Part shown: positions 46,549 through 48,970 of the stretch, in pieces
How positions within the stretch are numbered: the first letter of the stretch is position 1
Layout: each line of letters starts with the position of its first letter
Origin: a virus
Taxonomy: Duplodnaviria; Caudoviricetes
Length of the DNA stretch: 52,304 bases
Direction: 5' to 3' (one strand)
Virus record (IMG/VR): IMGVR_UViG_3300020197_000033
Coordinates: 1 to 52,304 of that record
Made by a program: the position numbers and the translations under genes
Notes under the pieces: model-generated
Seen by the model: only the letters and a program-made list of their open reading frames with translations
Database searches by the model: none
Told to the model about the DNA's origin: nothing

Positions 46549-46620
46549 TATGGGAATGAGATGCGCCCCAAAGACACTCACCATTTCTCAATGTATTCTA
46601 AATTAAAAGGAGAAACACTC
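46549..46620 (+). repeat. 72-nt leader repeat, copy 1 (candidate structured RNA)
   Basis: 64/72 identical to 48899-48970 by hand alignment. Confidence 0.9.
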
Positions 46621-46621
46621 T

Positions 46622-47635
46622 GTGACTAAAACTCTTGATGAACTCAAAAGGATTGAGGGACATCTGTCATATGAGATTGTCAACTTTGTTGATGAGACTC
46701 ACAATGACTGTAAAGTCCATAAGATTCTTAGGAAAAAGAATTCTTATCCTCTTGTGGTTCTTGATTCCCCCCCGCCCGGCATTCCACTGATTCCCGTGGA
46801 CAAGATCATCGTAGGTGCTTATCAGCGACCCGAAGATTTTGACCAGAACCAAGTAGCAAACAATATTAAAGATGTTGGTGGATTTAAGTACGACTTTTTT
46901 AATGTCGTACTGGTGTATCTTCGTCCCAATGGTAAGTATTACGTTGTGGACGGTATGCATCGCATTGTGAAAGCAATGCTTTGTGGGATTAGGGATGTTC
47001 CTGCATTGGTAAAAGTCCACCCCCAAGGTCTATCTACCGCTGAGATGGAAAAGATTGAAGCAGATGCATTTCTTGCTAGTAACCGTCGCAACAAAAAAGT
47101 TAGTAAGAATGGTAACTTCAAAGCAGGCATTTATGCCGGTGATGCTGCATCTCTTCAGATCGAACGTATTCTGAATGTTACGAACTGGACCATCAAAGGA
47201 CTTGGTGGTGATGGACAATTTGTCATCAGTGATTACGGTCATATCCGTGATTCCTATATTGATTATGGGAAAGATGCCGTTGTGTACGCATCTCAACTGG
47301 TGCAAAACAACCAATGGAGAGGTGAGAAACCTGCACCCACTTTTGTCGGTGGTGTTGCATGTTTTATTGCAAAGATCTTCCCTCAGTTGAACGAACAGAC
47401 GAAAGTTCTCTTTATCACTTGGTTCAACAGCATGATGACCTTGACTGATACTCAACGGTCCTACACTGAGAAACCTTGTTATGGTCGTGCAAGGGAAAGT
47501 GTTGCGTTTCGTTTGTCGCAACGGTTCAACTTCTATGTGAGACAAAAAGGTCTTCGCCGGCCGATTACTATTACTCACATCAAAGAGTTGGAAGGGTTGA
47601 GTAACGAATGGTTATCCGCATTTCACATCGACTGA
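46622..47635 (+). CDS. ParB/Srx-fold (DGQHR-type, DUF6551-like) protein
   Basis: YQRP, LVYLRPNGKYYVVDGMHR, EADAFLASN; AAGGAG RBS and GTG start. Confidence 0.8.
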   Translation: MTKTLDELKRIEGHLSYEIVNFVDETHNDCKVHKILRKKNSYPLVVLDSPPPGIPLIPVDKIIVGAYQRPEDFDQNQVANNIKDVGGFKYDFFNVVLVYLRPNGKYYVVDGMHRIVKAMLCGIRDVPALVKVHPQGLSTAEMEKIEADAFLASNRRNKKVSKNGNFKAGIYAGDAASLQIERILNVTNWTIKGLGGDGQFVISDYGHIRDSYIDYGKDAVVYASQLVQNNQWRGEKPAPTFVGGVACFIAKIFPQLNEQTKVLFITWFNSMMTLTDTQRSYTEKPCYGRARESVAFRLSQRFNFYVRQKGLRRPITITHIKELEGLSNEWLSAFHID

Positions 47636-47715
47636 TTAGATAAGGGATCCTTATCCAAACCCCCCTTGCCCTGCAGGGGGGGTTCCTTTATCATACTTCC
47701 ATTGACATTCAGATT

Positions 47716-48894
47716 ATGAAGTTTCGTCCACACCAAATTCGTATTGATGCAAAGATGCAGGAATACGACAAGGGACAAATTATTTCTCCTACTGGTAGTG
47801 GAAAAACACCGAATATGTTCTTTGATGCCAAACGTCAATTTCAGTCAGAAACTCCTCAGACTGTTGTAGTTGTTGCTCCTCGCATTTTGCTTGCGGAGCA
47901 GTTGTCTTCTGAGTTTCTGGAACACATTACCAACGCAGAAGTTTTGCACGTTCATAGTGGTGAAACTCATCACGTTAGCACTACTAACCCCGCTGACATT
48001 GTGGTTCACGCTGGTATGTGTGCTGCTGCAGGTCTTCATCAGTTGATCTTCACTACTTACAACTCTCTGAATCGTATTCAAGAGGCAGAGATTGATGTAG
48101 ATACAATTTACTTTGACGAAGCACACAACAGTGTTCAGCGACACTTTTTCCCCGCAACCAAACACTTCTCCGAGAAGGCAAAACGGTGTTATTTCTTCAC
48201 TGCAACTCCAAAACATTCTCTTGCTTTTGATAAACCTGGGATGAATCATCCTGAAGTTTATGGTGAGGTTTTGTGTAAAGTTCCTGCACCCGAACTTGTT
48301 GAAAATGGTTATATTCTCCCCCCTAAAGTTGTAGTAAAGCAACTACCCATGATTAAGGGAAAACAGGTCATTTTCTCTCGTGACAGTGACAATCTAATTG
48401 AAACTATTGATGAGCAGAAAGTCAAAAAGATTCTTGTCTGTGCTCGTACCACCAAACAAATTGTAGGATTGATTTCGGAATCTGATTTCTGTTCACAGTT
48501 GTATGTCCGTGGGTATTCTTGGATGGTGATTACATCTAAGACTGGTCCTATTATTGATGGTAAGAAAGTAAATCGTGAGGAGTTCTTTGAGACTCTGAAC
48601 GCATGGGGTAAGGATGAATCTAAAAAGTTTGTTGTGATTCATCACAGTATCCTATCTGAGGGTATCAATGTGTCTGGACTGGAGGCAGTTCTGTTCATGC
48701 GTAACATGGATTACATCGGTATCAGTCAAACTATTGGACGTGTAATTCGTCTTGGTAGTTCACAGAAAAAGTTTGGACTTGTCTGTATTCCTGTCTATGA
48801 TAATGTGGGTATCAGTACATCTCGCAAAGTTCAATCTGTTGTTGATATTATCTTCGAACAAGGAGAACCTGCCATTTCTGTGATCAAACGGTAG
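47716..48894 (+). CDS. Superfamily 2 helicase (DEAH, ResIII-like)
   Basis: PTGSGKT, FDEAH, FTATP, ILSEGIN, QTIGRVIR. Confidence 0.92.
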   Translation: MKFRPHQIRIDAKMQEYDKGQIISPTGSGKTPNMFFDAKRQFQSETPQTVVVVAPRILLAEQLSSEFLEHITNAEVLHVHSGETHHVSTTNPADIVVHAGMCAAAGLHQLIFTTYNSLNRIQEAEIDVDTIYFDEAHNSVQRHFFPATKHFSEKAKRCYFFTATPKHSLAFDKPGMNHPEVYGEVLCKVPAPELVENGYILPPKVVVKQLPMIKGKQVIFSRDSDNLIETIDEQKVKKILVCARTTKQIVGLISESDFCSQLYVRGYSWMVITSKTGPIIDGKKVNREEFFETLNAWGKDESKKFVVIHHSILSEGINVSGLEAVLFMRNMDYIGISQTIGRVIRLGSSQKKFGLVCIPVYDNVGISTSRKVQSVVDIIFEQGEPAISVIKR

Positions 48895-48898
48895 AATG

Positions 48899-48970
48899 TA
48901 TGGGAATGAGATGCGCCCTAAAGACACTCAATGTTTCTCAATGTATTTTTAATTGAAAGGAGAATCACTC
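48899..48970 (+). repeat. 72-nt leader repeat, copy 2
   Basis: Direct repeat of 46549-46620, ending immediately before ATG 48971. Confidence 0.9.

Follow-up and report, generated by a model that had tools for sequence, protein, structure and literature searches.

The preQ1-I and SAM-II riboswitches are small H-type pseudoknot aptamers with an A-rich third loop, and their topology is like that of the RNA described here. In the preQ1-I type, which we take to be Rfam family RF00522, the strands follow one another as the 5' strand of S1, a loop, the 5' strand of S2, a short loop, the 3' strand of S1, an A-rich loop and the 3' strand of S2. The phage T4 gene 32 leader likewise carries a pseudoknot at its 5' end, which is followed by an unstructured stretch up to the start codon and is tied to the gene's own protein product. 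This leader pseudoknot is mentioned in PMC10690425, whose supplements list 8,495 candidate RNAs drawn from IMG/VR. For T4-like cyanophages, the structured RNAs manA, wcaG and PhotoRC-II have been reported from putative 5' UTRs (PMC2864571), and T4-type phages are described as carrying many PeSL cassettes per genome, each consisting of a sigma-70 promoter and a G+C-rich terminator hairpin (PMC2839356, PMC4122927). Among RNA viruses, the coremin or xrRNA-C element of beny-, cucumo- and other viruses is presented as a tiny, highly conserved RNA with a suspected knot-like tertiary fold and an essential A-rich single-stranded stretch, which forms a mechanical block to 5'-3' exonuclease and to ribosomes. 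It is reported to be built from a first hairpin of 3-4 bp, whose loop is YGAD or YGNNAD, and a second hairpin, with a conserved spacer of 10 nt (GUUAAACUAC) between them (PMC6546385, PMC10520033).

The locus studied here lies in a 52,304-nt viral sequence (IMG/VR record IMGVR_UViG_3300020197_000033; the window), for which the sequencing runs listed comprise 20 DNA runs from lake water metagenomes and no RNA run, which has no bearing on expression. A repeat search recovered the 72-nt direct repeat of the preliminary description, with 64 of 72 positions identical (89%), the copies 2350 nt apart and each copy running to an AAGGAG and a start codon (Table 1). It is the sole such family in the window and has two copies only. 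Each copy is a complete gene leader, at the start of which lies a compact H-type RNA pseudoknot of 28 nt, hereafter the knot. A 29-nt core pattern allowing up to three mismatches matches exactly these two copies (0.00 expected from 100 shuffles), and the next-best window site for covariance model R1, run with filters off, reaches 9.7 bits, far below the scores of the two copies.

Table 1. Features at and between the two repeat copies (window coordinates)
Feature	Position	Strand	Remarks
Repeat copy 1	46549..46620	+	Full leader of the ParB-like gene (knot, spacer, Shine-Dalgarno); orthologous leader at the DSL-LC02 ParB gene
Pseudoknot core, copy 1 (28 nt)	46552..46579	+	R1 57.1 bits; covariation in sets A1 and A2
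S1, copy 1	46552-46554 with 46566-46568	+	
S2, copy 1	46558-46563 with 46575-46579	+	A46561 bulged
Loops, copy 1			AAU, CG, CAAAGA
UUUCUCA box	46584..46590	+	Predicted partner: UGGGAA of the knot or GGAGAA of the Shine-Dalgarno region
Shine-Dalgarno and GTG start, ParB-like gene	46607..46624	+	AAGGAG 46607-46612; GTG from 46622
337-aa ParB/Srx-like protein gene	46622..47635	+	
G+C-rich terminator-like hairpin with overlapping promoter-like site (PeSL-like)	47658..47684	+	Between ParB-like and helicase genes
392-aa ResIII/DEAD helicase gene	47716..48894	+	Helicase or UvsW in relatives' annotation
Sigma-70-like promoter match, CTGCCA-17-TAGAAT (9/12)	48869..48897	+	Consensus match only; ends 4 nt before knot copy 2
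Repeat copy 2	48899..48970	+	Same leader, inserted between helicase and 192-aa genes
Pseudoknot core, copy 2 (28 nt)	48902..48929	+	R1 55.6 bits
S1, copy 2	48902-48904 with 48916-48918	+	
S2, copy 2	48908-48913 with 48925-48929	+	
Shine-Dalgarno and ATG start, 192-aa gene	48957..48973	+	AAGGAG 48957-48962; ATG from 48971
192-aa protein gene	48971..49549	+	Without functional assignment

The two copies enclose the ParB-like gene and the helicase gene. Weak ParB-like signals in the 337-aa protein (PHROG ParB-like partition protein, 2.1e-07; Pfam DUF6551 and GmrSD_N, both under the cut-off), together with the annotation of its DSL-LC02 orthologue as ParB/RepB/Spo0J, agree with the ParB/Srx-like assignment made earlier from the translation. 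The 192-aa protein has no match in Pfam or PHROG and is, as had been stated, without recognisable function; the same searches gave no AbiF- or HEPN-like match for either downstream protein, as had also been anticipated.

The 28-nt consensus of the core reads NGGAAU-GAGAUG-CG-CCN-YAAAGA-CACUC. Its helices are S1 (NGG/CCN) and S2 (GAG(A)UG/CACUC), and the loops AAU, CG and YAAAGA are almost invariant. We compared two sets of relatives, A2 with 57 distinct 36-mers picked regardless of pairing and A1 with 45 sequences; A2 was picked by an ORF-coverage filter, which is noisy in that real copies may be covered by spurious read-through ORFs. In A2, 96.5% of cells are paired and four of the eight pairs undergo compensatory change. 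The pairing score was reached by none of 500 shuffles and slid controls were far lower, with the same outcome for A1. Three covarying pairs lie in S2, whereas S1 has two invariant G-C pairs and a single variable one, which occurs in all four Watson-Crick types and carries the support for this helix (N1/N17: GC 30, AU 10, CG 3, UA 2, GU 2, other 10); this pair, the third of S1, is open in 10 of the 57 sequences. All three free S2 pairs are formed in 119 of 132 pattern matches with low-GC, phage-like flanks, compared with 11 of 43 in high-GC flanks. The folding energy of the single sequences, computed on both strands, was no more favourable than that of shuffles (z = 0.00 and 1.21 for the two copies) and does not count towards the evidence, so the structural evidence rests on comparison with relatives. 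For the consensus, the predicted energy is small (-3.25 kcal/mol, for the nested part alone).

Judged by this covariation, the 28-nt core is not a chance hairpin but consists of two crossing helices, each with compensatory change (in S1 at one pair), as expected of an H-type pseudoknot. The inner stem TGAG(A)TG/CACTCA of the preliminary description corresponds to the helix that covaries in relatives and stands. Its outer stem, TGGGAA/TTCTCA, survives in part: it can form in four of four leaders of the window's type, but it is confined to that type, lacks compensatory change and competes with the pairing of the loop CCC with GGG, which is the one that covaries. Downstream of CACUC the family is G-poor, with neither family-wide conservation nor a common hairpin.

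The core is present in at least 87 distinct contexts, which include uncultured viral and metagenome contigs as well as the cultured cyanophages Syn30 and DSL-LC02, and so spans marine (Syn30) to lake phages. Genomes of ∼170 kb carry one or two knots. The exact 22-nt core is found in 21 other viral contigs, and a looser pattern in which the covarying positions are free matches 54 viral contigs and at least 117 metagenome contigs. One degenerate core pattern had no match in 185,579 prokaryotic species genomes; on the same search, an origin from the host or mimicry of a CRISPR repeat was rejected. A cmscan against all 4227 families of Rfam 15 gave no gathering-score match at either repeat. At E<=10, the stretch 46400-49100 gave no match, and the stretch 46535-46630 searched alone gave two unrelated rows at chance level. 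On comparative sequence grounds, the knot represents a conserved RNA family of T4-like cyanophages that is absent from Rfam 15. Being widespread and covarying, it does not behave like the purely local duplication without covariation that had been named beforehand as speaking against the earlier idea. A literature search on cyanophage pseudoknots, early promoters, leaders and structured RNAs found no description of the motif, which may nevertheless be among the candidate RNAs of PMC10690425.

The knot lies on the coding (sense) strand of the next cistron. Across the 87 contexts, the next start follows at a median of 29 nt (mostly 19-42 nt) and the previous ORF ends at a median of 16 nt upstream. 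Behind the knot we find at least 13 unrelated protein families, among them ParB-like, tiny acidic, KTSC-like and nuclease-like (179 aa) proteins and the 192-aa protein, as well as tRNA-Asn and tRNA-Gly. In the tRNA contexts, which stem from two independent lineages, 6-7 nt separate the knot from the mature tRNA 5' end. The gene behind the knot varies among relatives, and a gene for a ssDNA-binding protein was never downstream of it in the sampled contexts. In 11 of 47 contexts, a promoter-like site with a score of 9/12 or more ends 2-16 nt upstream of the knot, compared with 2.3% of random positions, while the best upstream score stays below 8/12 in 27 of the 47. Many contexts thus have no recognisable promoter just upstream, which suggests that the knot is often internal to a transcript. 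Most leaders have neither a Shine-Dalgarno sequence nor a terminator. The knot is a portable element that occupies the front edge of a cistron, often a few nt from a promoter-like -10 box.

These placements bear out the earlier suspicion that unrelated, interchangeable genes stand behind the same RNA. They do not agree with an RNA-plus-effector cassette or a decoy for a toxin, since the downstream genes share no common theme and no protein family co-occurs with the knot. None of 265 Syn30 ORFs was found by tblastn in both DSL-LC02 and G001, which carry the knot, while being missing from four knot-free cyanomyoviruses (S-SM2, S-CAM9, P-TIM68 and S-T4), a small sample in which tiny proteins can escape detection. 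This fits a mechanism that is independent of phage proteins or depends on a host factor. A tiny acidic protein (F0) was rejected as a constant partner, as it is missing near the knot in Syn30, in the window and in KTSC-type contexts. Likewise rejected were a leader peptide starting at the AUG of GAGAUG, which the GAGCAG subtype lacks, and a late or middle promoter or fixed -10 box 3' of the core, where there is no conserved hexamer and just 6-7 nt remain before the tRNAs.

How does the knot compare with the described systems? With coremin, as portrayed in PMC6546385 and PMC10520033, it shares a very small size, conservation in viruses and an A-rich stretch, and some coremin copies are intergenic as well. 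However, the knot is a 5-bp bulged helix whose 11-nt loop pairs with an upstream NGG, with no conserved spacer or second hairpin, and where Xrn1 is the enzyme for coremin, a DNA phage of bacteria would face RNase J or RNase E as candidates. The sole conserved hairpin of the knot has the 11-nt loop CGCCCYAAAGA in place of the coremin 5' hairpin, and there is no counterpart to the 10-nt spacer and second hairpin, the family diverging after CACUC. A window scan for a YGAD/YGNNAD hairpin with an AAAY spacer gave five matches, none of them at the repeats, and a coremin-type element was rejected there.

The likeness to preQ1-I lies in the size of ∼30 nt, the strand order, the conserved unpaired nucleotides and the position in a 5' leader. 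Unlike preQ1-I, the knot has reversed helix lengths (S1 3 bp, S2 5-6 bp), other loop sequences, no ribosome-binding site inside, no tie to a metabolic gene set and no match to an Rfam riboswitch model. Like the T4 gene 32 element, it is a pseudoknot with which a T4-type phage leader opens, with an unstructured stretch from there to the start codon. That element, however, is tied to gene 32 alone, whereas the knot stands ahead of tRNAs and of no fewer than 13 unrelated families. The knot and manA, wcaG and PhotoRC-II are all conserved structured 5'-UTR RNAs of unknown or guessed function; the latter, as described in PMC2864571, are larger, multi-helix and modelled in Rfam, and no such model matched at the repeats. 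Like PeSL cassettes in the accounts of PMC2839356 and PMC4122927, the knot is a short conserved non-coding module in variable early regions, and its contexts mark junctions where the insertion or replacement of a gene distinguishes related phages. It differs from them in lacking a promoter or terminator hairpin, in occurring once or twice per genome and in its RNA-type pseudoknot covariation. No promoter with terminator is found inside the repeat unit; there is just the 9/12 promoter match ahead of copy 2.

Relatives of the 192-aa gene reveal how copy 2 arose. None of 34 viral relatives has a knot in front of this gene, and in 11 of them the helicase end abuts it. From these leaderless and often tight junctions we conclude that the entire leader of the ParB-like gene was copied into the junction between the helicase and 192-aa genes, where it gives the 192-aa gene a leader and ribosome-binding site of its own; leaders of this kind are thus mobile. 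The near-identical metagenome contig L103 has copy 2 as well. The loss of the 2350-bp segment by excision, proposed earlier on the basis of the direct repeats, found no counterpart: the contigs of four lake metagenome runs, which can miss rare forms, contain no joined form without the segment, and the relatives indicate insertion of copy 2 instead. The only joints listed in these contigs lie inside the helicase gene, have short sides of 21-39 nt and probably derive from relatives. In the same contigs, both repeat junctions have a depth equal to that of their flanks.

For the function of the knot we tentatively favour a cis-acting RNA boundary module that would shield or insulate the downstream message and possibly adopt two states, although we hold this reading with less than even confidence. 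Acting on its own transcript, the knot would form a tightly folded cap close to the 5' end or directly at it, and would insulate the message from upstream structure as well as protect it from 5'-end-dependent decay through the RNase J and RNase E of the host. In the leader type of the window, the 5' strand GGGAA of the knot could alternatively pair with the downstream UUCUC box, which, when free of GGGAA, would pair with the Shine-Dalgarno sequence. Through this choice of the box between GGGAA and the Shine-Dalgarno, the knot may also set the accessibility of the start site. The pairings of the UUUCUCA box are predicted and lack compensatory change, but such complements are enriched family-wide: among 68 leaders, 26.5% have a stretch of 7 nt or more complementary to (N)NGGAAU within the 25 nt that follow the knot, compared with 4.9% of 902 other gene upstreams. 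To our knowledge, T4-like cyanophages have no T4 middle-mode regulators. Very small viral RNA knots are reported to stall 5'-3' exoribonuclease and scanning ribosomes (PMC6546385, PMC10520033), and cyanobacteria are described as possessing both RNase E and RNase J (PMC8682795).

If the knot is such a boundary module, T4-like cyanophages would own a portable 28-nt RNA device that can be pasted ahead of any gene. Few conserved knotted RNAs known from phages would be as small, and the device would be of a size suited to direct structural and enzymatic work; it would also bear on early-message stability, processing or translation control in hosts with RNase E and RNase J. As Syn30 and DSL-LC02 are cultured and both carry the knot, the question can be tested now.

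Several observations sit uneasily with a shield. A generic one would be expected many times per genome, while one or two knots per ∼170 kb are observed. Ahead of tRNAs, RNase P would remove a knot lying 6-7 nt upstream, with no obvious benefit there. The near-invariant loops are equally compatible with recognition by a ligand or protein, many knots have no promoter just upstream, one S1 pair is open in 10 of 57 sequences, and the nested part has a small predicted energy, with single-sequence z close to 0.

An alternative that we consider unlikely is that the 28 nt of the knot make up a minimal RNA sensor or decoy, either a new, very small aptamer set by a ligand or host factor or an early RNA that is released and captures a host protein. 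As a sensor, its folding may toggle GGGAAU, which would pair either within the knot or with the ribosome-binding region; in both versions phages may have in it a portable RNA device to paste before any gene or tRNA. A riboswitch-like two-state switch, to which we give a similarly low probability, would work through S1, stabilised or melted by a ligand, an ion, a host protein or the ribosome that ends the upstream gene. GGGAAU, which has its alternative partner in the ribosome-binding region, would be freed or captured as a result, and the downstream gene thereby switched on or off. The unpaired nucleotides, nearly invariant from marine through freshwater phages, are aptamer-like, the GGGAAU complements are enriched as given above, and in the window's leader type both UGGGAA/UUCUCA and the Shine-Dalgarno-hiding UUUCUC/GGAGAA helix are predicted. 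The enriched alternative helix would be a candidate expression platform; it lacks compensatory support and is missing from most leaders. Moreover, the ribosome-binding site lies outside the knot, which ends 19-42 nt before the start, most leaders have no Shine-Dalgarno or terminator, no Rfam riboswitch model matched at gathering score or at E<=10, and the 13 downstream families share no function, with tRNAs in two contexts.

Release of the knot as a self-standing small RNA or decoy appears rather doubtful. Here, RNase P would cut it from an early transcript ahead of tRNAs, and in the other contexts RNase E would do so within the G-poor leader; the freed knot would bind a host protein or defence factor in trans. 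One or two copies per genome would suffice for such a single need, the identity of the downstream gene would be immaterial, and processing of the tRNA in the two lineages with a knot 6-7 nt upstream would set the knot free. Expression would be early and promoter-proximal, and no phage-encoded partner was found. A free RNA, however, would not need the tight preference for 19-42 nt before a start codon, there is no visible terminator or defined 3' end, and the one pattern searched in prokaryotic genomes revealed no similar host sequence.

It is improbable that the knot acts on RNA polymerase, as a promoter-proximal RNA that lets the enzyme pass the hairpin terminators of the early region. Models for such an element are the HK022 put RNA and the lambda nut sites, of which nutL and nutR precede different genes. 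Similar to these, the knot is promoter-proximal in many contexts, occurs in one or two copies per genome before different genes, and has a strong terminator-like hairpin (47658-47684) behind the ParB-like gene; the tRNA contexts would fit too. Against this stand the many copies right behind an upstream ORF without a promoter, the lack of a co-occurring N-like protein and of a boxA-like sequence on the sense strand, and a length of 28 nt, far below that of put RNA.

We regard a feature of the DNA itself as very improbable, whether a promoter, a protein-binding site or direct repeats through which the segment with the ParB-like and helicase genes would be deleted or shuffled. The 72-nt direct repeats do flank the 2350-bp segment, contigs L148 and L199 hold tandem and expanded copies, and gene content near the knot varies among relatives in a way that recalls the PeSL cassettes of PMC2839356 and PMC4122927. 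But the compensatory changes include G-U pairs and are specific to the sense strand, which points to RNA, and the conservation of the 28-nt core goes well beyond what recombination needs. The contigs of the four runs, moreover, hold no joint over the segment and have junction depths equal to the flanks. Recombination may thus be a side effect rather than the selected function.

The abiF RNA motif sits upstream of abiF/HEPN-type abortive-infection genes, and the membership in its family that was first proposed from a resemblance of the GAG..GCGC..AAA..ACACTC string is refuted by the covariance-model search of all Rfam 15, which gave no match, down to E<=10 with the 96-nt stretch searched by itself. 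That the knot is an abiF-type RNA, or the RNA antitoxin in a locus for abortive infection or of the toxin-antitoxin kind, is scarcely credible: the genes downstream include nothing like AbiF, HEPN or a toxin, and one pattern was absent from prokaryotic genomes.

In the window, PeSL-like hairpin-promoter units adjoin the knot at 46106-46133 and 47658-47684, both outside the repeats.

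The window represents a 52.3-kb, ~25% complete fragment of an uncultured T4-like cyanomyovirus, and at the repeat locus the named relative that matches best is Synechococcus phage DSL-LC02, a lake phage. The duplicated leader recognised in the preliminary description is borne out: the two 72-nt copies, the only ones within the window, are identical at 64/72 positions, each closes with AAGGAG and a start codon, and the genes behind them are unlike. Wide sharing is limited to the first 28 nt of the repeat, here called the knot.

Positions of the leader copies, of related elements and of other features observed alongside them
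Sequence	Position	Strand	Feature
Window	46549-46620		Copy 1, leader of a gene for a 337-aa ParB-like protein
Window	48899-48970		Copy 2, leader of a gene for a 192-aa protein that belongs to no known family
Window			Between the copies: ParB-like gene and ResIII/DEAD helicase gene
DSL-LC02 (OR032571.1; L088)	23695-23729; 996-1030	minus (OR032571.1)	Second DSL-LC02 knot (GGGUUA subtype), ahead of a gene for a tiny acidic protein
L207	5-34		Further example of the GGGUUA subtype
L206	694-718	minus	Part of the window's leader (3' half, AATGTATTCTTAATTTAAAGGAGAA) preceding a different gene; no intact knot
Window	46106-46133		PeSL-like unit
Window	47658-47684		PeSL-like unit
Window	~51880-51925		PeSL-like unit
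L079	5037-5102		PeSL-like unit
Window	29495-29791		Phage-encoded, circularly permuted cyanobacterial-type tmRNA (RF01851 174 bits; RF04321 98.5 bits)
Window	29336-30759		tmRNA plus four tRNA genes
Window	42701-44308	minus	535-aa ORF with internal 63-nt G+C-rich repeats (family D1), on the strand opposite to its neighbours

The pairing pattern and the covariation among its variants identify the knot, at the level of sequence comparison, as an H-type pseudoknot, and the structured RNA claimed earlier is thus upheld. Helix S1 pairs NGG with CCN, helix S2 pairs GAG(A)UG with CACUC, and the loops AAU, CG and YAAAGA hardly vary. The S2 combination GAGAUG...CACUC is replaced by GAGCAG...CUCUC, GGGAUG...CACCC, GAGACG...CGCUC, GACACG...CGGUC or GGUGGG...CCGCC, each of them paired. 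In S1, the base preceding GGAAU covaries with the third base of the loop CCN triplet (G-C, A-U, U-A, C-G). Among 57 distinct 36-mers selected irrespective of pairing, 96.5% of cells are paired and four of the eight pairs show compensatory change; none of 500 shuffles attained this covariation, and slid controls were 29-56% paired. For the 45 viral sequences alone, pairing rises to 99.1%. The pattern hits provide an internal control, as the three free S2 pairs are all present in 119/132 hits with phage-like low-GC flanks compared with 11/43 with high-GC flanks. G-U pairs are confined to the sense strand. Support for S1 comes from one variable pair, unpaired in 10 of the 57 sequences, and folding energy alone does not support the fold.

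A resemblance to the abiF RNA had been proposed. Searching the repeats by cmscan with the full set of 4227 Rfam 15 models gave no match at the gathering score, none at E<=10 over 2.7 kb and none for the 96-nt leader alone, ruling out abiF or any other Rfam family. The cyanophage motifs manA, wcaG and PhotoRC-II, as described in PMC2864571, have models in Rfam 15, and these do not match the knot. The YGAD-loop hairpin, conserved spacer and second hairpin of coremin are absent from the knot, and the likeness between the two is one of principle only. We therefore regard the knot as an uncatalogued family of phage leader RNAs that is not categorically new; PMC10690425 predicts 8,495 candidate viral RNAs, which may include it.

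The exact 22-nt centre of the knot is present in a further 21 IMG/VR contigs. Three less strict patterns, relaxed at different parts of the knot, matched 35, 46 and 54 viral contigs, the last also matching at least 117 metagenome contigs. A degenerate core pattern had no match among 185,579 prokaryote species, each represented by one genome, and blastn against 50,697 phage records found the knot in DSL-LC02 and the cultured cyanophage Syn30 only. Genomes carry one copy (Syn30 and two further genomes, G001 and G002) or two (DSL-LC02 and the window), and four other cyanomyoviruses searched carry none. The second DSL-LC02 copy is of a diverged subtype (GGGAAU GGGUUA G CCC UAAAGU UACCC), where both partners of the closing S2 pair are changed and one of the loops is shortened. 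Our patterns would not capture this subtype, and the family therefore extends beyond the members sampled. Two metagenome contigs (L148, L199) have tandem extra knots just after their own copy, carrying an insert of ~25 nt that separates CCC from AAAGAC; in L195, a related contig, there is a single plain copy.

In all 87 distinct contexts the knot lies on the strand of its flanking genes, a median of 16 nt behind the previous ORF and 29 nt (mostly 19-42) ahead of the next start codon. The preliminary description envisaged interchangeable genes behind the leader, and cataloguing them yields 13 unrelated protein families. Among others, these are the ParB-like and 192-aa proteins, tiny acidic proteins (33-49 aa), KTSC-like proteins, a nuclease-like protein of 179 aa with Dam methylase and the helicase behind it (Syn30 group), and a protein of 257-275 aa with an N6/N4 methylase behind it. 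In two lineages, independent of each other and differing in S2 sequence, the knot ends 6-7 nt ahead of a tRNA gene. Of 47 contexts, 11 have a sigma-70-like promoter match (>=9/12) whose end lies 2-16 nt ahead of the knot, compared with 2.3% of random positions; in the other contexts the knot simply comes after the upstream stop codon. Past the knot, the leader is G-poor and usually lacks an SD. Judging by the half-leader of L206, which lacks an intact knot, the leader is seemingly built from separable parts. In L012 and L019, the knot is directly preceded by a T-arm-like sequence (GGTGATAGTTCGATTCCATCACTCGGTACG) that ARAGORN did not report as a tRNA; it may be a tRNA-like element or an unusual tRNA.

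Copy 1 is orthologous to the DSL-LC02 ParB-gene leader (60/74 over the whole leader, post-knot part included). None of 34 viral-contig relatives of the 192-aa gene has a knot in front of it; in 11 of the 34 the helicase gene ends -18 to +6 nt from the start of the 192-aa gene, and several also have a distant ParB-like gene ahead of the helicase. ParB-like, helicase and 192-aa genes thus form an old block, and copy 2 is the ParB-gene leader copied into a once-tight helicase/192-aa junction. Post-core identity is 33/40 between the copies and slightly lower, 30/42, between either and DSL-LC02, and copy 2 recurs in the metagenome contig L103 (70/72), so the duplication is not brand new but has become fixed in a lineage. 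Excision of the 2350-bp segment, also considered earlier, finds no counterpart in contigs of four lake metagenome runs, which span both copies at flank depth and contain no joint removing it.

From its placement and portability, which like its fold are shown, we infer that the knot may act in cis as a boundary module, the reading we favour. Folded tightly at the 5' end of the message or close to it, the knot would shield or insulate the part behind it. We favour this because the knot sits at cistron fronts and near promoters, is indifferent to the gene behind it and co-occurs with no phage protein (none of the 265 ORFs of Syn30 has the matching profile), and because very small viral RNA knots elsewhere stop a 5'-3' exonuclease and ribosomes, according to PMC6546385 and PMC10520033. 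Low copy number and the tRNA contexts speak against it. Some support also exists for a second reading, in which the knot would represent one of the states of a switch. The 25 nt after the knot include a stretch of 7 nt or more complementary to the GGGAAU strand in 26.5% of the 68 leaders compared, versus 4.9% of 902 other upstream regions, although this enrichment is only suggestive because the leaders are mutually related. For the window's leader type, helices UGGGAA/UUCUCA and UUUCUC/GGAGAA are both predicted. A released small RNA or decoy, or a put/nut-like transcription element, is possible.

PeSL-like units, in which a G+C-rich hairpin (C6...G6) has a TTGACA-like box in or beside its loop and a -10 box right behind, lie repeatedly between early genes, and repeat family D3 includes two of them.
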